NCBI GenBank assembly: GCA_046581755.1 | Contig: JAYGFR010000239.1 | Coordinates: forward strand, 1-17,611 | DNA length: 17,611 bases | Source of the DNA: Nitrospinota bacterium | GTDB taxonomy: Bacteria > UBA8248 | Reading direction: 5' to 3' | In this document: positions 7,398 through 14,561 of the stretch, piece after piece | Numbering within the stretch: the first letter of the stretch is position 1 | Layout: the number at the start of each line of letters is the position of its first letter | Made by a program: the position numbers and the translations under genes | The notes under the pieces: generated by a model | Database searches by the model: none | What the model saw: the letters and a program-made list of their open reading frames with translations, nothing else | What the model was told of the DNA's origin: nothing

Positions 7398-8573
7398 ATG
7401 CCCGACGCACCTGCCAACAATACCTGGTTCACCTATTTTCCCAAGGACTACCGCTGGTCGGCCGCGATCTGCGGCATGCTGACGGGCGCCCAGTTCGGCG
7501 CCACCGAGATCGGGGAGCTCGATCAGGTGGGCCGGCGGCTCGCCAAGAAGTTGGGTGACGATAACCATTGGTTCCGCGAATGGGTGCGGATGGCCGACCG
7601 GGTGCGCGAGCTGGGCCGCGCGGCGGAGCGCAAAAAGCAAAACCTCTCGGCCGCCTCCCACTACAAGCGCGCCTGCAACTACTACCAGATGGCCGAGCGC
7701 TTCCGCACGCCCAAGGACAAAAAGGCGCTCGACGCCTACCGCAAGGGGGTGAACTGTTTTCAGCGCTTCGCGCGCCTGACCGACCGGCCCAAGATCGAAA
7801 CCGTGGAGGTTCCCTTCGAGGGGCGCAAATCGCTCCCCGGATACTTCGTCCACGCCGAAAACACCCGAAAGGCCAGGCCGCCCGTCGTCGTGTTCTTCGA
7901 CGGCCTCGATGTCACCAAGGAGCTTCAGTACATGCGCGGGGTGGAGGATATCGTCCGGCGGGGGATGAGCGTTCTCATCCTGGACGGCCCGGGCACCGGC
8001 GAGGCGATACGCTTCCGGAAGATCTACCTGCGCCACGACTATGAGACGGCCGGCTCGGCTGCGCTGGATTATCTCGAAGGCCGCAAGGACGTGAACGCGA
8101 AAAAGGCGGGTGTCATGGCCATCAGCCTGGGCGGCTACTATGCGCCCCGCATCGCCAGCATGGAGCGCCGCTTCAAGGCCTGCCTCGCCTGGGGCGCCAT
8201 CTGGGACTACTATGCCACCTGGGAAAAGCGCATCGACCAGGCCTTCAAGACCGAGCTCTCCGTGCCGGGCCATCATCTCGAATGGATTCTGAACGCCAAG
8301 AACATCGATGACGCCCTGGCCAAGCTCGATGGATTCCGGCTCGACGGCGTGGTGCAGAAGATGCGCTGCCCCTTCCTCCTCACCCACGGGGCGGACGACA
8401 AGCAGATTCCCAGGCGGGACGCCCGCGCCCTGTTCAATGCGGTGGGCTCAAAGGACAAGACGTTCAAGCTGTTCACCGTGGAGGAGGGCGGCGCCCAGCA
8501 TTGCCAGCGCGACAACCTCTCGATCGGCACCACCTATATGTTCGATTGGCTCAAGGAAAAACTCGGGGCCTGA
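7398..8573 (+). CDS. Alpha/beta hydrolase, 2,6-dihydroxypseudooxynicotine hydrolase/FrsA-like (paralog 1), 391 aa
   Basis: An N-terminal helical region (RACNYYQMAE) precedes VEVPFEG, FDGLDVTKE, DGPGTGE, the nucleophile elbow AISLGG, HGADD (acid) and GGAQHCQ (His). The start is ATG 7398 after a GAGGGAG RBS. Confidence 0.9.
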   Translation: MPDAPANNTWFTYFPKDYRWSAAICGMLTGAQFGATEIGELDQVGRRLAKKLGDDNHWFREWVRMADRVRELGRAAERKKQNLSAASHYKRACNYYQMAERFRTPKDKKALDAYRKGVNCFQRFARLTDRPKIETVEVPFEGRKSLPGYFVHAENTRKARPPVVVFFDGLDVTKELQYMRGVEDIVRRGMSVLILDGPGTGEAIRFRKIYLRHDYETAGSAALDYLEGRKDVNAKKAGVMAISLGGYYAPRIASMERRFKACLAWGAIWDYYATWEKRIDQAFKTELSVPGHHLEWILNAKNIDDALAKLDGFRLDGVVQKMRCPFLLTHGADDKQIPRRDARALFNAVGSKDKTFKLFTVEEGGAQHCQRDNLSIGTTYMFDWLKEKLGA

Positions 8574-8643: not shown

Positions 8644-9828
8644 ATGGCGAGAAAACCCAAGGCGCTGGCGAAGGCCGCCTGGTTCACCTATTTTCCGGAC
8701 GATTACCGCTGGTCGGCGGCGATCAGCATTTTGTGCTCCATGGCCAACTGGGGCGGCGCCTCTATGGGCGAGATCGATCGGGTGGGGCGGCGCCTCGCCG
8801 GGAAGGTAGGGGACGACAACCACTGGTTCCGCGAGTGGGAGCGGATGGGGGACCATCTCCGGGGGCTGGGGCTCGCGGCCGAGCGCCGGAAAAACAACCT
8901 GAGCGCCGCCGATTTTCAAAAGCGCGCCTGCATGTACTACCAGATGGGCGAGCGCTTCAGGACGCCCAAGGACAAAAAGGCGAAGGCCTGCTACCGCAAG
9001 TCGCTCGATTGTTTCGCGCGCTTCGCCCGCTTGACCGACCGGGCGAGGATCGAGCGGGTCGAAATCCCCTTCGAGAAGGGGAAAAAGCTACGCGCCTATT
9101 TGGTCCACGCCCAAAACACGAAAAAGGCGAGGCCGCCCGCCGTCGTATTTTTCGATGGCTTCGATGTCTCAAAGGAGATTCAGTATGTCTTCGGTTGCGA
9201 GGATCTCATCCGCCGGGGGATCAGCGTGCTTCTCGTGGATGCGCCCGGAAACGGGGAGGCCATCCGCTTCCAGAACCTGTATCTGCGCCACGATCACGAG
9301 GTGGCCGGATCGGCCGCGCTGGATTATCTCGAAGGGCGGGGGGACGTGAACGCCAGGCGAACGGGTGTGTTGGGGATCAGCCTGGGCGGCTACTACGCCC
9401 CCCGGAACGCCAGCATGGAGCGCCGCTTCAAGGCCTGTATCGCCTGGGGCGCGCAGTGGGATTATCAGAAAATCTGGCAGGACCGCATCGCGGCGGCTTA
9501 CAAGACGGCGCTCTCCGTGCCGGGCCACCACCTCACCTGGATCTTCAACGTCAAGACCATGGAGGAGGCTCTCGTAAAGCTCGAGGGGTTCAAGCTGGAC
9601 GGCGTGGTGCAGAAGATGCGCTGCCCCTTCCTCCTCGTGCACGGGGAGGACGATCAGCAGATATCCATGCGGGTGGCCCGCAAGCTGTTCAACGCGGTGG
9701 GATCGAAGGACAAGACTTTAAAGGTGTTCACCGGAAAGGAGGGCGGCGCACAACACTGCCAGATGGACAACGTGATCCTGGCGACCTCGTATATGCACGA
9801 TTGGCTCAAGGAAAAGCTTGAGGCCTAG
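8644..9828 (+). CDS. Alpha/beta hydrolase, 2,6-dihydroxypseudooxynicotine hydrolase/FrsA-like (paralog 2), 394 aa
   Basis: The protein is colinear with paralog 1 and has FDGFDVSKE, DAPGNGE, GISLGG, HGEDD and GGAQHCQ. The start is ATG 8644 after a GGAG RBS; the ORF-track extension to 8308 overlaps the upstream gene and is not credible. Confidence 0.9.
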   Translation: MARKPKALAKAAWFTYFPDDYRWSAAISILCSMANWGGASMGEIDRVGRRLAGKVGDDNHWFREWERMGDHLRGLGLAAERRKNNLSAADFQKRACMYYQMGERFRTPKDKKAKACYRKSLDCFARFARLTDRARIERVEIPFEKGKKLRAYLVHAQNTKKARPPAVVFFDGFDVSKEIQYVFGCEDLIRRGISVLLVDAPGNGEAIRFQNLYLRHDHEVAGSAALDYLEGRGDVNARRTGVLGISLGGYYAPRNASMERRFKACIAWGAQWDYQKIWQDRIAAAYKTALSVPGHHLTWIFNVKTMEEALVKLEGFKLDGVVQKMRCPFLLVHGEDDQQISMRVARKLFNAVGSKDKTLKVFTGKEGGAQHCQMDNVILATSYMHDWLKEKLEA

Positions 9829-9834
9829 CGAACC

Positions 9835-10203
9835 TTATTTGGGCATAAGGACGTACACCTCGCCGCCCTCGATTTCGACCGGGAAGGTCTTGACCTTGCG
9901 GCGGCGGTCGGCAAGGCAGCTTCCGGTCCGGAGGTCGAACTCCCACCCGTGCATGGGGCAGGCGATGATGTCGTACTCCTCGCGGGCATAGCGCTCCCGC
10001 ACACGGCCGTCCGGCCCCACCTCGGTCACCTCCCGGAATAGATTCCCGGGGCATACCGGCCCTTTTTGATGGGGACAGAAATTCTCCAGCGCGAAAAAAC
10101 CGTCCGATAGGTGAAAAATTCCAATGTGAAACCCGCCGATCTCGACTAGGAGCCGCTCCCCCTGCGGAATTTCGCCCGCCTTCCCGGCCGAATAGCGTTT
10201 CAT
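9835..10203 (-). CDS. Rieske [2Fe-2S] ferredoxin, 122 aa
   Basis: Ligand boxes are C43-P-H45 and C82-P-M-H85-GWEFDLRTG. The C-terminal TFPVEIEGGEVYV is typical of Rieske ferredoxins. The start lies 3 nt after the upstream stop. Confidence 0.93.
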   Translation of the reverse strand: MKRYSAGKAGEIPQGERLLVEIGGFHIGIFHLSDGFFALENFCPHQKGPVCPGNLFREVTEVGPDGRVRERYAREEYDIIACPMHGWEFDLRTGSCLADRRRKVKTFPVEIEGGEVYVLMPK

Positions 10204-10206
10204 GGC

Positions 10207-11319
10207 TCAGACAGCCTTCTTGAGGGCCAGGGTTTTCTCGGTGAGCCGGAAAACCCCGAGGGCGGTTTCGCCCATAATCTTGCGCCGGCCCTCCGGCGAG
10301 AGAAATGGCAGGTCCGCCACCGCGCCCGGCTCGTCGTAGTCGAAATGAGGCCAGTCGATCGCGAACATGAAGGAATTTTCCGCATCGGCCATGTCGAAAA
10401 ACGACTTGAGATGGCGGGGCGGCATCTCCTCGATGGGCTGGGTGCTGTAGTAAAAATCCTTCATGTACTCGCTGGGGAGTTTTTTCAGCAGAGGCGCCTC
10501 GAGCCGCCGCATGTACTCGGTGTCGAGGCGATACATCAACCCTCCAATCCAGGTGACGCCACTCTCCTGAAAGACAAATTTAAGATCCGGGAAGCGCTCG
10601 GGCACGCCCTCTGGGACCATGCTGGTGAGCTGAACCTGGTTGCACCAGGTCATGTCGAGCGCGTGGGATTCGAGAAACGAGGGGAACTTAGAGAAGACGG
10701 AAAGATCGGGGCCCAGGAAATTCGCGTGGACGACTATGGGTAGGCCGTGGTGCTGGGCCGCCTCGTAGATCGGGTTGTAGACTTCCGCGCCAAGCGGCGT
10801 CTCGACGCTACCCAGTATCTCTACGGCGCAGACGACTGGATGGCTCGAGACTCGGCCGCTCATCTCCGCCGATTTTTCAGGGTCCCGGCCCGCCGCGACG
10901 ACGAGGGTGTAGACGCCCTTGTCCGGGTCGCAGACGCCGTCGAGCATGTAGTCGATATATCCGTTACAGATGTCCATCGCGTGGTTGCGGTCCCGGACGA
11001 ACTCGACCATGAGCATGTAGGTGGGCAGGAGTACGATGGGGTCGATGCCGAAGTGGGCCATGGCCTTGGGGATGTTCCTCGGGCTGGTCATCCCGAGCAT
11101 CTCGTCCTGCTCACCCATGCCCGAGGCCCCGCCGCCGCGGACGGTGTGGCCGTGAAGCATGACGTCGTACTGATCTCCCACCAGCGCCGGCATGTGGTAC
11201 TGCCCGCTCCAGTCGGCGAACCGCTTCACCGAGGGGCCGTGAAGGTATTTGGAAAATTCACGGATTTGTTCGAGGTAGTGGGCGTCCACATCCACCACGT
11301 GGAGACCGTCGTATCCCAT
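10207..11319 (-). CDS. Amidohydrolase-2 family TIM-barrel metalloprotein; candidate amidohydrolase-related dinuclear oxygenase, 370 aa
   Basis: Motifs: VVDVD12AH14, PIYEAAQHHGLPIVVH198, GVPERFPDLKFVFQE252SG, PSEY, STQP and FAID322WPH325FD327. It is adjacent to a Rieske ferredoxin. Confidence 0.88.
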   Translation of the reverse strand: MGYDGLHVVDVDAHYLEQIREFSKYLHGPSVKRFADWSGQYHMPALVGDQYDVMLHGHTVRGGGASGMGEQDEMLGMTSPRNIPKAMAHFGIDPIVLLPTYMLMVEFVRDRNHAMDICNGYIDYMLDGVCDPDKGVYTLVVAAGRDPEKSAEMSGRVSSHPVVCAVEILGSVETPLGAEVYNPIYEAAQHHGLPIVVHANFLGPDLSVFSKFPSFLESHALDMTWCNQVQLTSMVPEGVPERFPDLKFVFQESGVTWIGGLMYRLDTEYMRRLEAPLLKKLPSEYMKDFYYSTQPIEEMPPRHLKSFFDMADAENSFMFAIDWPHFDYDEPGAVADLPFLSPEGRRKIMGETALGVFRLTEKTLALKKAV

Positions 11320-11338
11320 CGCCGTATTCCGGAGCGGC

Positions 11339-12271
11339 CTAGTCGGCCGTATGCTTCATCCTCGGGTCGAGGACGTCGCGGAGCCAGTCGCCCAGCAGGT
11401 TGACGCTCAGCACCGTGACCATCAGGACCAGCCCCGGGAACAGGGCGATCCACCAGGCGGTGTCCAGGAAGGCGCGGCCGTCGGCCAGCATTCCGCCCCA
11501 GGTGGGCGTGGGCGGCGGCACCCCGAGCCCTAGGAAGGACAGGGCCGATTCGATGATGATCATGCGCCCCAGATAAAGGGTCGCGATGACGATGGTGGTG
11601 GAGATGACGTTGGGGAACAGGTAGAAGGCCAGGATGCGGAACGTGCTGCATCCGGCCGCTTTCGCGCCCATCACGAAATCCTGTTCCTTGAGGGAGAGCA
11701 CCTCGCTCCGAACCACGCGCGCATAGACGATCCACGTCCTGAGGGCGATGACCAGAATAATGTTTTGCAGGCTCGGTCCCAGGATGGCGACCAGGGTGAT
11801 GGCGAGCAGGATAAACGGAACCGCTAGGGCCGTATCGACAATTCGGCTGATGATGGTATCCACCCATCCTCCGAAATAGCCTGCGGCGATTCCGACGGAG
11901 ATTCCGATGAAGCCGCTGATGAGTACGGCGGTGATCCCAACGAGGAGGGAGATTCGCGAGCCCCAGATAATGCGGCTGAGGATGTCCCGGCCCTGCTGAT
12001 CGGTTCCGAGATGGTAGACGTTGCCGGCCTTGTCCGTGAAGCCGGGCGGCTTGATGTAGCGTATCAGGTCCTGATCGATCGGGTCCAGCGGAGAGAAAAA
12101 GCCGGGGATGATGGCGAACAAAATCACGATGATCAGACAGACTAGTCCGATCATGGCCGGAGGCCTCTTTTTGAGTTCGCGGATTGCGAGCTGAAAATCC
12201 GAAGGCCCCCGGGGTTCGTCCTCCAAGGCTGCCAGCGGCGGCGCCAGCGTGTGCGTTTGTTCGACTGCCAT
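11339..12271 (-). CDS. dppC: Peptide/nickel ABC transporter permease, DppC/OppC type, 310 aa
   Basis: Motifs: HLGTDQQGRDILSRIIWGSRISL, AGYFGGWVD, the EAA-like loop DFVMGAKAAGCS and ESALSFLGLGVPPPTPTWG. Multiple TM segments are visible. Confidence 0.93.
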   Translation of the reverse strand: MAVEQTHTLAPPLAALEDEPRGPSDFQLAIRELKKRPPAMIGLVCLIIVILFAIIPGFFSPLDPIDQDLIRYIKPPGFTDKAGNVYHLGTDQQGRDILSRIIWGSRISLLVGITAVLISGFIGISVGIAAGYFGGWVDTIISRIVDTALAVPFILLAITLVAILGPSLQNIILVIALRTWIVYARVVRSEVLSLKEQDFVMGAKAAGCSTFRILAFYLFPNVISTTIVIATLYLGRMIIIESALSFLGLGVPPPTPTWGGMLADGRAFLDTAWWIALFPGLVLMVTVLSVNLLGDWLRDVLDPRMKHTAD

Positions 12272-12300
12272 TTTCGTTTTCGCTCCCGGTTTTTAATTCC

Positions 12301-13314
12301 CTAGCTGTATGAAATTCGCGGGTCGAGCAAGGCGTAGAGAATATCCACGGCCAGGTTCACCCCCACGAATACGAACGAAAGCAGCGCCACCGCCGCCTGG
12401 ACGATGGGGTAGTCCTGGTTGCTGATGGCGTCCACCACCAAAAAGCCCACCCCCGGCCAGGCGAACACGGCCTCGGTCACGACCGTCCCGCCGAGGAGGA
12501 TTCCCAACTCCAGCCCCACCAGCGTCACCACGGGGATGGCGGCGTTCTTCAGGGCGTGCCGGACGATGACGAGCCACTCGACGATGCCCTTCGAGCGGGC
12601 GGTGCGCACATAGTCCTGCTCGAGGACCTCGAGCATCTGCGAGCGCACGAGGCGCGTGATGCGGGCGGTGGCGTAAAGGCCCGCCGTGACGGCCGGCAAG
12701 ATGATGTAGTACCAGGCCTCGAAGCCCGACGTGGGGAGCCACCCGAGATAGACGGCGAAAAAAATGATGAGCAGGAGGCCCAGCCAGAAATTGGGCATGG
12801 ACTGGCCGAACATCGATCCAATCGAGCTGGCATGATCGATCCAGGTGTTCCTGAAGGTGGCCGACAGGACCCCGGCCGGTATGGAGATCAAAATGGCGAG
12901 GATCACCGCCGTTATCGCCAGCAGGATGGTGTTGGGGAAATGCTCCAGGACGAGGCCCATCGCGGGTATTTCGTGGCGGTAGGAGAAGCCGAAGTCCCCC
13001 CGTATGACCCCCAGGGTTTTCACCCGCTCGGCATTTTCGATATCGACATCGGAAGTCTTGATGTTCTGGGTCTCCCCCAGCAAAATATAATCGACGGTAT
13101 CGACGCCGAAAAGAAACTTGGCGAACTGGATGGGGAGCGGCTGGTCGAAGCCCATCTCCTTGGAGAAGGCGGCCACTTCCTCTTGGGTGGATTCCAGGGG
13201 CATCAGGATGGCCGCCGGATTCCCCGTGATCTGCAGCATCGAGAAGACGAGGACCAAAATCGCCATGAAGACGATGAGGCTCTGAAGAACCCGCCGAATG
13301 ATGTATGCGCGCAT
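12301..13314 (-). CDS. dppB: Peptide/nickel ABC transporter permease, DppB/OppB type, 337 aa
   Basis: Motifs: YIIRR N-terminus, GFDQPLPIQF, GDFGFS, SMPNFWLG, QDYVRTARSKG, RHALKNA, VTEAVFAWPGVG and DILYALLDPRI. Confidence 0.93.
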   Translation of the reverse strand: MRAYIIRRVLQSLIVFMAILVLVFSMLQITGNPAAILMPLESTQEEVAAFSKEMGFDQPLPIQFAKFLFGVDTVDYILLGETQNIKTSDVDIENAERVKTLGVIRGDFGFSYRHEIPAMGLVLEHFPNTILLAITAVILAILISIPAGVLSATFRNTWIDHASSIGSMFGQSMPNFWLGLLLIIFFAVYLGWLPTSGFEAWYYIILPAVTAGLYATARITRLVRSQMLEVLEQDYVRTARSKGIVEWLVIVRHALKNAAIPVVTLVGLELGILLGGTVVTEAVFAWPGVGFLVVDAISNQDYPIVQAAVALLSFVFVGVNLAVDILYALLDPRISYS

Positions 13315-13518
13315 GGGTTTCCTTGTATATGACAGTTTCGATGACCGGTGTTTTATCGTCTATGGTTGATGGATATCGTCGCTATCTTCTCCGCCTCCGT
13401 CAAGGCGGGCGCGGGCGCGAATGCGCGCGGCGGGCCCCCCCGCGGGGACTCCCCGCCGGGACCCGGTTTCGGCCTCTCCCCGCGCGCCGCCCATGGACAT
13501 CCGGCGGGAGGATCCTTA

Positions 13519-13533
13519 GGATAGGGCCTATCC
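13519..13533. promoter_or_regulatory. Perfect 7-bp inverted repeat (putative operator) between divergent dppB and VOC genes
   Basis: GGATAGG-G-CCTATCC lies 65 nt upstream of the VOC start and is flanked by ATCCGG (13499-13504) and CCGGAT (13539-13544). Confidence 0.4.
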
Positions 13534-13598
13534 ATTGTCCGGATATGAAGGAATGTCACCGGAAGCCCGTTGCGGCGAACCGTGGAGGGGAGAGGCGC

Positions 13599-14561
13599 AT
13601 GCCCGTAGATGCGAAGCTGGACCATCTCGGCCTTTACACGGAGGATATCGAGCGTTCGATGCGCTGGTATCACGAAATCCTCGGGTTTCGCGTCTCGGAT
13701 TACCTGCCCCCCGGGAACACCGAGGAGCCCGTCGCCCCGGACGGGATCTCCTGGATGCGCTACTCTCATCTTCACCACGACCTGACCTTCGTCCAGTATC
13801 CGGTCGAGGCCCTTTCGGAACCCGAAACGGGCCAGCCCGGCAATCTCCAGCAGTTCGCTTTCCACGTGGCTTCCGAGGGTGCCGTCGAGGCGGCCTACGA
13901 GGCCGTGACCGCGGCGGGTGTCACCATCGTCAGCCCTCTCAAGCGGGGGCCGGTTCTGGGAATTTTGCAGTTCTACATGGCCGACCCGGACGGCAACAAG
14001 GTCGAAATTTTTCACACTCCCGGCCTGGCGCCCCGGCCGGAGCGGAGCGTCGAAAGCCCGGGCCTCATCCGGGTCGATTTCTTGTCTCATGTCGGTGTCT
14101 ATGCCGGGGACATGGAAAAATCCATCGATTGGTACGAGGAGATGCTGGGCTTCCGCCTCGCGGACAAGCGCGGGGCCGACCCGCCCGAACCCGTCCTCCA
14201 GGCCAGCGTGCCGCACGGGATCGCCTGGATGAGCAATACCGAGGAACACCATAATCTCGTCCTGGTCCAGCTGGCCCCGGAGGAGATCGGAAGGCCGCTT
14301 CCCTTCGGGGGGCGGGGCTCCCTTCAGCAGATCGCCCTCGACATCGAGAGCACCGACGCCCTCATGTCCGCGCACGAGTATCTGGCCGGAAAGGGGGTGG
14401 ATATCGTCGTGCCCCCGCGCCCCCAGAACTGGAGCGGCGGGATGAAGTTCTACTTCCGGGATCCGGACGGAACCAAGCTGGAAATTTCGAGCGGGATGAA
14501 AACTGTTGATCTAGATTACGGCAGCCAATACGAAATCGCCCGGAAGATGGCGGCGACCTGA
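13599..14561 (+). CDS. Two-domain VOC (glyoxalase/extradiol dioxygenase superfamily) protein, 320 aa
   Basis: Two similar modules: DHLGLY...WYHEILGF...HHDL...FYMADPDGNKVE and SHVGVY...WYEEMLGF...HHNL...FYFRDPDGTKLE. The start is ATG 13599 after a GGAGGGGAGAGG RBS. Confidence 0.9.
   Translation: MPVDAKLDHLGLYTEDIERSMRWYHEILGFRVSDYLPPGNTEEPVAPDGISWMRYSHLHHDLTFVQYPVEALSEPETGQPGNLQQFAFHVASEGAVEAAYEAVTAAGVTIVSPLKRGPVLGILQFYMADPDGNKVEIFHTPGLAPRPERSVESPGLIRVDFLSHVGVYAGDMEKSIDWYEEMLGFRLADKRGADPPEPVLQASVPHGIAWMSNTEEHHNLVLVQLAPEEIGRPLPFGGRGSLQQIALDIESTDALMSAHEYLAGKGVDIVVPPRPQNWSGGMKFYFRDPDGTKLEISSGMKTVDLDYGSQYEIARKMAAT

Follow-up and report, generated by a model that had tools for sequence, protein, structure and literature searches.

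Amidohydrolase-related dinuclear oxygenases (AROs) were named in PMC10811679, which found them by way of their Rieske neighbours. They form a superfamily of ~17,000 members defined by a D-x-H and a D-x-P-H-x-D/E motif, both of which are reported to be absent from the characterised hydrolases and decarboxylases of the family (PMC13154177). Here we describe an ARO-like gene pair in a 17,611-nucleotide (nt) stretch of DNA, hereafter called the window. The window is one contig (JAYGFR010000239.1) of the 4.2-Mb genome of a Nitrospinota bacterium (400 contigs, 96.5% complete), and the DNA runs that contain it are marine. It carries a 370-amino-acid (aa) ARO gene (10207..11319, minus strand) directly upstream of a gene for a 122-aa Rieske [2Fe-2S] ferredoxin (9835..10203, minus strand). 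With a probability of about 0.8, we read the pair as an ARO with its likely Rieske donor. The barrel is predicted to hold two metals, more likely diiron than Mn/Fe, and would use O2 and ferredoxin electrons for C-H hydroxylation of a small imported organic compound; selection on the copy found here has likely been relaxed. The direct basis of this reading is a set of seven metal-site residues, a fold match, a conserved gene coupling, lineage-specific changes and missing upstream signals.

The best match by both sequence and fold is D3EI84 (PDB 8SM7), an orphan ARO of the low-potential kind from Geobacillus sp. Y412MC10 (PMC10811679, PMC13154177). It shares with the window ARO the seven metal-site residues, an STQP segment, a Rieske partner and aromatic residues at gamma4 and gamma5, two positions in the C-terminal motif that belong to a published set of metal-choice residues. 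At the other two positions of this set considered here, gamma1 (the x of D-x-H) and gamma2 (the end of strand 2), D3EI84 has Val and Thr whereas the window ARO has Ala and Leu. D3EI84 also retains a residue that is deleted at 270-272 in the window protein, and its Mn(III)Fe(III) state has been demonstrated. SfbO/SfbR of Litorilinea aerophila (PDB 8SM6, 8SMA, 9BU9, 9BUA) likewise combines one kind of barrel with a Rieske partner, and W341 and W343 of SfbO align with F326 and Y328 of the window ARO. The two proteins are 28% identical and differ at gamma1 (Val in SfbO), at gamma2 (Thr) and in the pair R232 and R235, which binds sulfate in SfbO (PMC10811679).

The AibH1H2-AibG-AibF system of Rhodococcus wratislaviensis (PMC7782822, PMC10401708) resembles the window in its metal ligands, in a Rieske gene directly downstream and in a nearby transporter. 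It differs by a second, mononuclear barrel and a linked reductase, by Ile at gamma1 and Gln at gamma2 of AibH2, and by its low identity (26-27%). The high-potential diiron AROs PtmU3 and DitZ carry the same motifs and come close to the Ala and Leu of the window in having a small gamma1 (Ser in PtmU3) together with a hydrophobic gamma2. However, they are far more distant (16-19%), have a non-aromatic gamma4 by the published rule, and mostly lack a Rieske neighbour.

A preliminary description of this DNA had proposed that the protein is a dinuclear oxygenase mis-annotated as a hydrolase, and had placed its gene 3 nt ahead of the Rieske gene. Both genes are present on the minus strand, exactly 3 nt apart (spacer 10204..10206), and the metal-site residues occur where they had been assigned: D12-A13-H14 (11278..11286), H198 (10726..10728), E252 (10564..10566), STQP at residues 292-295, and D322-W-P-H325-F326-D327-Y328 (10336..10356), all on the minus strand. 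In AibH2 the ligands are D25, H27, H211, E265, D337 and H340, with D342 in the second sphere, and the mononuclear AibH1 is without this last Asp (PMC7782822). On alignment, all seven of these residues match the window ARO one for one, as D12, H14, H198, E252, D322, H325 and D327, the last of these occupying the position that AibH1 lacks; the D-A-H of the window stands opposite D25-I-H27. Among 113 aligned homologues, D12, H14, H198, D322, P324, H325 and D327 are invariant, and E252 is Glu in 112.

Other sequence and fold hallmarks of the superfamily agree. The protein is a barrel of the triose-phosphate isomerase (TIM) kind, in PF04909 (Amidohydro_2; Pfam E 1.5e-23, over the cut-off), its D-x-H lies on strand 1 (model strand 10-15), and its D-x-P-H-x-D at 322-327 is preceded by at least about 200 residues and by the central H198 and E252. 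A site of the ACMSD/LigW type, which has another N-terminal motif and no D-x-P-H-x-D/E, does not describe it. The motif pair is selective, because only three of the 23 PF04909 matches in this genome carry both motifs; the other 20 lack the C-terminal one. No NCBIfam family matches the ARO at E 1e-10.

Comparison with solved structures gives the same ranking. The best solved match of the sequence itself is 8SM7 (E 1e-51), and a profile of the 113 homologues matches 8SM7 at E 8e-87 and SfbO at 9e-67, followed by 8SM9, AibH2 and 8SM8 (7e-59); AibH1 follows at 4e-39 and the first decarboxylase, LigW, at 4e-24. An AlphaFold model of the ARO (mean predicted local distance difference test score, pLDDT, 80.6; residues 40-70 unreliable) superposes on 8SM7 with Z 37.8 (root-mean-square deviation, rmsd, 2.8; 328 residues aligned; 35% identity), on SfbO with Z 37.7 (rmsd 2.6; 326 aligned), on AibH2 with Z 36.1 (rmsd 2.8; 329 aligned), on PtmU3 with Z 32.1 (rmsd 3.1; 328 aligned) and on ACMSD with Z 32.0 (rmsd 2.8; 311 aligned). 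Solved AROs thus outrank the decarboxylases by sequence and, at the top of the list, by fold. Together with the two motifs, the ligand mapping onto AibH2 and the kept Rieske neighbour, this ranking supports the proposal of a mis-annotated oxygenase. Of the refuting outcomes that the preliminary description had listed, none arose among those open to computational comparison. Judged by its sequence, the window protein is a member of the ARO superfamily, a class that was already defined in 2024-2026.

The Rieske protein has the features of a Rieske ferredoxin of fewer than 250 aa (C-x-H and C-x-x-H), with box 1 as C43-P-H45 (10069..10077, minus strand) and box 2 as C82-P-M-H85 (9949..9960, minus strand), and it matches PF13806/PF00355. 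Oxygenase ferredoxins and NirD are the top Foldseek matches of its model, a result that fixes the type of fold only, because the model is poor around the cluster (pLDDT <50 at 52-62 and 66-86). In box 2, Met replaces the Trp of most partner ferredoxins: C-P-M-H occurs in 18 of 100 rows, those of this subclade, and C-x-W-H in the other 82 (rows were counted per ARO, so that paired loci count twice). This Trp may correspond to the stacking Trp85 of SfbR.

The coupling of the two genes is well conserved. A Rieske gene lies directly downstream in 17 of the 18 ARO orthologues (76-79% identity) and near 38 of the 43 full-length loci at >=35% identity, a set that includes 19 close kin and leaves out one locus (L030) with its ARO split over two frames; the coupling persists down to about 30% identity. 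Of the five loci without a Rieske gene, L036 ends 39 nt downstream of the ARO, L034 and L035 end within less than 1 kb, and L017 and L019 are truly without one. Prediction of the ARO-Rieske complex gave a score of 0.57, as against 0.00 for the best control, with contact agreement between runs of at least 85% and partner pLDDT of at least 88. The mark used was reached by 116 of 157 solved pairs and by 2 of 215 mismatched pairs, but scores of 0.60 or lower were given by only 18 of the 157 solved pairs and by both mismatches; the prediction lends the pairing weak support.

A Pfam scan of the 15 open reading frames (ORFs) of the window found no reductase family, as the preliminary description had stated, and thus none of the linked flavin/2Fe-2S reductase that marks AibH1H2GF-type systems. 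PF14759, a reductase family, has no match in the genome. Candidate reductases occur on other contigs, as an FAD/NAD/2Fe-2S protein (C399) and an FNR-like protein (C118). A second barrel lacking the last Asp, as in AibH1H2GF-type systems, is likewise missing from the window and from 18 of 18 orthologous loci, each of which has one barrel gene. The single barrel that the description had singled out is real, but it is the published norm rather than a distinctive trait, and the lack of an adjacent reductase gene is equally ordinary. PtmU3 needs no second barrel (PMC10401708), SfbO and PtmU3 both function without one (PMC13154177, PMC10401708), and most of the loci that we surveyed are single. Barrels are single as a rule on the window's side of the tree described below, and paired barrels occur in the group with Val or Ile at gamma1.

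From what is known of the family (PMC7782822, PMC10401708, PMC10811679, PMC13154177), catalysis would proceed as follows. Metal 1 would be held by D12, H14, H198, E252 and D322, with D322 and E252 bridging both metals and H325 holding metal 2, while D327 would hydrogen-bond a metal-bound water. An unlinked flavin reductase, reduced by NAD(P)H, would reduce the Rieske cluster, and the Rieske protein would dock near Y328 and reduce the M(III)2 site. Reaction with O2 would then give a high-valent species capable of H abstraction and O transfer.

Which metals occupy the site is less easily read. The metal-choice residues of the window ARO are Ala13 at gamma1, Leu98 at gamma2 (11026..11028, minus strand; end of strand 2, model strand 95-99), Phe326 at gamma4 and Tyr328 at gamma5; the gamma2 register comes from a profile alignment to SfbO, D3EI84, W7L2Y2, AibH2 and B6JH23 rather than from superposed coordinates. 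In the published rule, a hydrophobic gamma1, hydrophilic gamma2 and aromatic gamma4 denote the Mn type (1,315 sequences) and the opposite pattern denotes diiron (11,952 sequences; Table 1, PMC13154177), and gamma2 is Phe or Tyr in over 95% of the high-potential diiron cluster (PMC13154177). The five solved Mn-type AROs have V, V, I, I and V at gamma1 and T, T, G, Q and T at gamma2, where Leu98 stands opposite Thr in SfbO, D3EI84 and B6JH23, Gly in W7L2Y2 and Gln in AibH2. The window ARO conforms to the Mn class at gamma4 (Phe326), in its Rieske neighbour and in its hydrophobic gamma5 (Tyr328), and departs from it at gamma2. Conversely, it conforms to the diiron class at gamma2 and departs from it at gamma4. 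Ala13, as against the Val or Ile of the solved Mn-type members, could be scored either way at gamma1; Ala lies near Ser on the octanol scale. By its residues the window ARO nevertheless fits neither class, however Ala is counted, because the Mn rule is broken at gamma2 and the diiron rule at gamma4.

This mixed code marks a branch rather than a quirk of one protein, because 95 of the 113 homologues share it, with Ala, Cys or Ser at gamma1, a hydrophobic residue at gamma2 and aromatic ones at gamma4 and gamma5. A quick tree built from 97 of the locus proteins (the 113 minus 16 near-identical rows) places the window in a group of 26 rows (Shimodaira-Hasegawa-like approximate likelihood ratio test, SH-aLRT, 99) nested inside a group of 39 (SH-aLRT 96). 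The larger group has a hydrophobic gamma2 throughout and lies apart from the group that combines Val or Ile with Thr, Asn or Gln. Farther afield, the 150 listed representatives at 50% identity included 116 of full length, and in 89 both motifs could be aligned. In these 89, a small gamma1 with a hydrophobic gamma2 occurs in 20 (13 of them with an aromatic gamma4), the canonical Mn pattern in 40 and otherwise mixed patterns in 29. Gamma1 and gamma2 are coupled at p 0.004, uncorrected for kinship; the coupling is real but loose at distance.

We lean towards diiron over Mn/Fe, at about 55:45, because Ala at gamma1 and Leu at gamma2 differ from the Val/Ile and the Thr/Gly/Gln of every solved Mn-type ARO. 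The lean also follows from the report that one tested protein, closer in homology to the Mn group but hydrophilic at gamma1, gave no Mn(III)Fe(III) signal (PMC13154177). More tentatively, and with the odds somewhat against us, we suggest that the branch is a third class of ARO, a widespread clade with Ala, Cys or Ser at gamma1 and Leu, Ile, Val or Phe at gamma2. Such a class would dock a Rieske protein as the Mn type does while carrying diiron-type residues on strands 1 and 2, and its members might be Rieske-driven diiron or truly cambialistic C-H oxygenases acting on a marine organic compound. If so, the clade would be a natural intermediate for studying Mn/Fe switching in AROs. The clade uncouples Rieske-docking residues from metal-tuning residues, which matters somewhat more than one more ARO member. 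Of the roughly 17,000 sequences, some 3,700 receive neither metal under the 2026 rule for telling Mn from Fe (by subtraction from Table 1, PMC13154177). Our literature search found no paper on an ARO with the mixed signature, on this lineage or on these loci, although figures S3, S8, S9, S12 and S13 of PMC13154177 and subscription papers may already cover the subgroup.

The sulfonate pocket of SfbO is not kept, because R232 and R235 align with H219 and D222 here. Only the nearer homologues (20 of 113) share D222, and every one of the 113 has R264. The idea that R264 might match R239 of ACMSD was set aside. Orthologues of the pair are surrounded by genes for a peptide-type permease, a CoA-transferase, a 3-hydroxy-3-methylglutaryl-CoA (HMG-CoA)-lyase-like protein, a FAH-family protein and an E1 dehydrogenase. 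In five orthologous loci (L001, L003, L008, L013 and L127), HMG-CoA-lyase-family and CaiB-type CoA-transferase genes stand between oppC and the ARO, and an oppC-ARO gap of 2.3-3.4 kb is found in all 18. The replaced sulfate residues and these neighbours suggest that an imported solute, amino-acid-like or bearing a carboxylate, is catabolised through hydroxylation or oxidative dealkylation, a suggestion qualified by the fact that the region is a mosaic of catabolic genes. We also considered whether this genome had lost the HMG-CoA-lyase-like and CoA-transferase genes, and rejected the idea: orthologues lie on contigs C276 (71%) and C217 (74%), with no ARO remnant alongside.

Several features set the window copy apart from its orthologues. 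All 18 carry a promoter-like TGCTATCAT box 40-80 nt before the ARO start and a GGAG near the start, whereas the 19-nt spacer that follows the oppC stop in the window (11320..11338, minus strand) has neither the box nor a GGAG ribosome site. A sibling lineage at 91-94% served for comparison, and eight outgroup loci gave the direction of each change. Derived changes in the window lineage number 15 in the ARO and 5 in the Rieske protein, as against 6 and 2 in the sibling. The pair thus shows 20 versus 8 where six neighbour genes show 40 versus 55 (Fisher p 0.009; ARO alone, p 0.017). The organisms that make up the sibling sets differ between genes, and 28 and 25 sites of the two hydrolases were unpolarisable. 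The derived ARO changes include I154S (10858..10860), at a site that is I, V or L in 112 of 113 homologues; L236P (10612..10614); a one-codon deletion that turns RRR into RR at 270-272 (10504..10512), a gap also seen against the five best solved AROs and in one of the 100 rows where the segment is measurable; and S321I (10357..10359) beside ligand D322, at a site that is S or T in 112 of 113 homologues and Ile in none of the 89 representatives (all on the minus strand). The Rieske protein has a one-codon deletion of its own near residue 60 relative to all relatives. The stem branch of the window lineage is 0.05, compared with 0.006 for its sister group, and the profile score is 451-454 for the window allele and 472-477 for full-length sibling alleles.

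Assembly error was rejected as the source of I154S, L236P, the ARO codon deletion and S321I, as all four DNA runs and other database proteins match them. In contrast, as far as those four runs go, D82N and T94P are seen only in this assembly. In one of the four runs, some contigs of just 56-61 nt (summed depth 11.1 of 28.4) also carry a one-base insertion in codon 81 of the Rieske gene, and one of them has C82Y in addition; these may be an artefact. None of the 51 genomes of the class yielded sibling-lineage DNA. In four RNA runs, both genes were covered by nothing more than short contigs of low depth (151-329 nt, depth 2-6) without a silent-stretch control, and these speak neither for nor against transcription. 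A promoter scan of 9600-13700 found 1 site where 1.0 was expected, and none on the minus strand, and is uninformative. On balance, selection on this copy has likely been relaxed and the copy is likely being lost, and its allele is probably a poor choice for expression; sibling or sponge-clade orthologues would be better.

Two rival readings concern the chemistry. Were the protein a mononuclear or dinuclear hydrolase or decarboxylase of the ACMSD/LigW type, with the Rieske gene a bystander, its Pfam family, its fold and its database name (metal-dependent hydrolase) would all be explained. We regard this as very improbable in view of the paired motifs, which have no reported counterpart in characterised hydrolases or decarboxylases (PMC13154177) and whose C-terminal half is missing from the genome's 20 other PF04909 matches, and of a Rieske coupling that extends to distant homologues. 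An ordinary low-potential Mn/Fe ARO like SfbO or D3EI84, in which Ala13 and Leu98 pack the core enough for Mn-type geometry, is a much stronger contender, falling not far short of an even chance. Its closest solved relatives are all of the Mn type, its 35% identity to 8SM7 lies inside the 31-44% seen among Mn-type AROs (Table S2, PMC13154177), and it has the aromatic gamma4 and gamma5 and the Rieske partner. Against it stand the failure of the Mn-class rule at gamma2, which holds regardless of Ala, and the silent protein near the Mn group (PMC13154177). The diiron ARO with a Rieske donor that we prefer has its own difficulties, and the following observations weigh against it. Rieske partners are reported to be largely absent from diiron AROs (PMC13154177), sequence and fold group the window protein with the Mn type, and its gamma4 and gamma5 are aromatic. 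In addition, the close orthologue L017 and the archaeal homologue L019 have no Rieske neighbour despite having room for one. Finally, fold alone does not separate oxygenase from decarboxylase, because ACMSD trails by only ~6 Z units and PtmU3, an oxygenase, does not outscore it.

The other two rivals concern the fate of the copy. The allele could already be non-functional, a pseudogene in progress with frames still unbroken, and its missing TGCTATCAT box and GGAG, its substitutions and codon deletion where almost every homologue is conserved, its lower profile score and longer stem branch, the four congeners without the pair and the frameshifted Rieske variant (short contigs of one run) would all be expected. 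We think this less likely than not: the seven ligands and both Rieske boxes are intact, long contigs of all four runs are free of stops and frameshifts, read-through from an oppB promoter could express the pair, and AlphaFold still folds the allele (which is no test of stability). Decay of the copy under relaxed selection, the state that we favour, must also accommodate some contrary signs. Both frames are open and the same allele occurs in all four marine DNA runs; ARO amino-acid polymorphism (3.0 per 100 aa) lies within the 1.0-3.9 of the neighbours, with the Rieske protein at 6.6; and nonsynonymous divergence (dN) to distant orthologues is 0.14 against a synonymous divergence (dS) of about 1.2, near saturation for the 78% orthologues. 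An adaptive burst, in which substrate or partner shifted after a rearrangement placed the pair behind oppBC, would account for the concentration of changes in the ARO and the Rieske protein together, for the fixation of most of them in the lineage and for a change (S321I) beside a metal ligand. It is nonetheless improbable: changes such as a buried Ile to Ser, a Leu to Pro and the loss of a codon from each gene tend to destabilise a protein, H219, D222 and R264 of the putative pocket have stayed the same, and the congeners have simply lost the pair.

Of the 51 genomes of the class, 19 have an ARO orthologue, this genome among them. In all four congeners the pair is absent from the same site, where the order glyoxalase-oppB-oppC-hydrolase-hydrolase is kept with an oppC-hydrolase gap of 14-30 nt, and no ARO orthologue was found elsewhere in these four genomes. 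In another genome (G008), the orthologous ARO is kept beside the hydrolase and the Rieske gene is not. Piecemeal loss of a module present in the ancestor is the simplest history; it would be less parsimonious to suppose that the pair was inserted later into the window lineage. G008 has a second ARO (L125:5569-7163, G008:C88), 69% identical and accompanied by a Rieske gene of its own; it is inserted behind a short-chain dehydrogenase, in a stretch of housekeeping genes. In a related family, four genomes (G024-G027) have 14-17 matches each, about half of them near-full-length and ARO-like at 31-35%, a large expansion. The ARO split over two frames lies at L030:5980-7109, and L033:4326-7065 holds two tandem ARO-Rieske copies, the second of them split; these splits are either sequencing errors or further decaying copies.

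The surroundings of the pair consist, upstream, of an oppC-type ATP-binding cassette (ABC) permease gene (11339..12271, minus strand) and an oppB-type one (12301..13314, minus strand), both conserved neighbours, followed by a two-domain glyoxalase-fold gene, a FAH-family gene and E1 alpha/beta genes. Neither a binding-protein nor an ATPase gene adjoins oppB/oppC (11339-13314) here or in the orthologous loci seen, and at least seven paralogues of the permease pair lie elsewhere in the genome. Downstream are two convergent alpha/beta hydrolase genes, of which the nearer (8644..9828, plus strand) ends 6 nt from the Rieske stop and forms the edge of the module. The gaps around and within the pair (19, 3 and 6 nt) are too small to hold a third small partner gene. 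These tandem genes (7398-8573 and 8644-9828, plus strand) are FrsA-like and 69% identical to each other, and about a dozen more paralogues at 23-76% make up a notable expansion in the genome. Upstream of the FAH gene, relatives (L127:522-4440) have two tandem E1 alpha/beta pairs that follow a gene of the carboxymuconolactone-decarboxylase family.

The genome encodes two further AROs, and the contig sequence examined around each contains no Rieske gene. The first (L128:240-1472, G000:C46) is of the mixed type, with D-A-H and Phe at gamma2, and precedes a TAXI-TRAP transporter; the other (L129:4024-5142, G000:C305) is of the canonical Mn type, with D-I-H and Asn. An orphan Rieske ferredoxin of the ARO-partner type (C-P-H...C-P-W-H; L130:4990-5481, G000:C247), with no ARO within the 8.9 kb examined, could serve these two unlinked AROs. 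At L067:7018-8412, a barrel beside an ARO has lost several ligands (D-A-Q, with K in place of the His and G in place of the Glu) and is possibly a non-catalytic partner unlike AibH1. Elsewhere in the window, a 36-nt unit is repeated 2.7 times at 1961-2056, spanning an amidase stop and the gap before a convergent CoA-ligase gene, and has no other copy in the genome.

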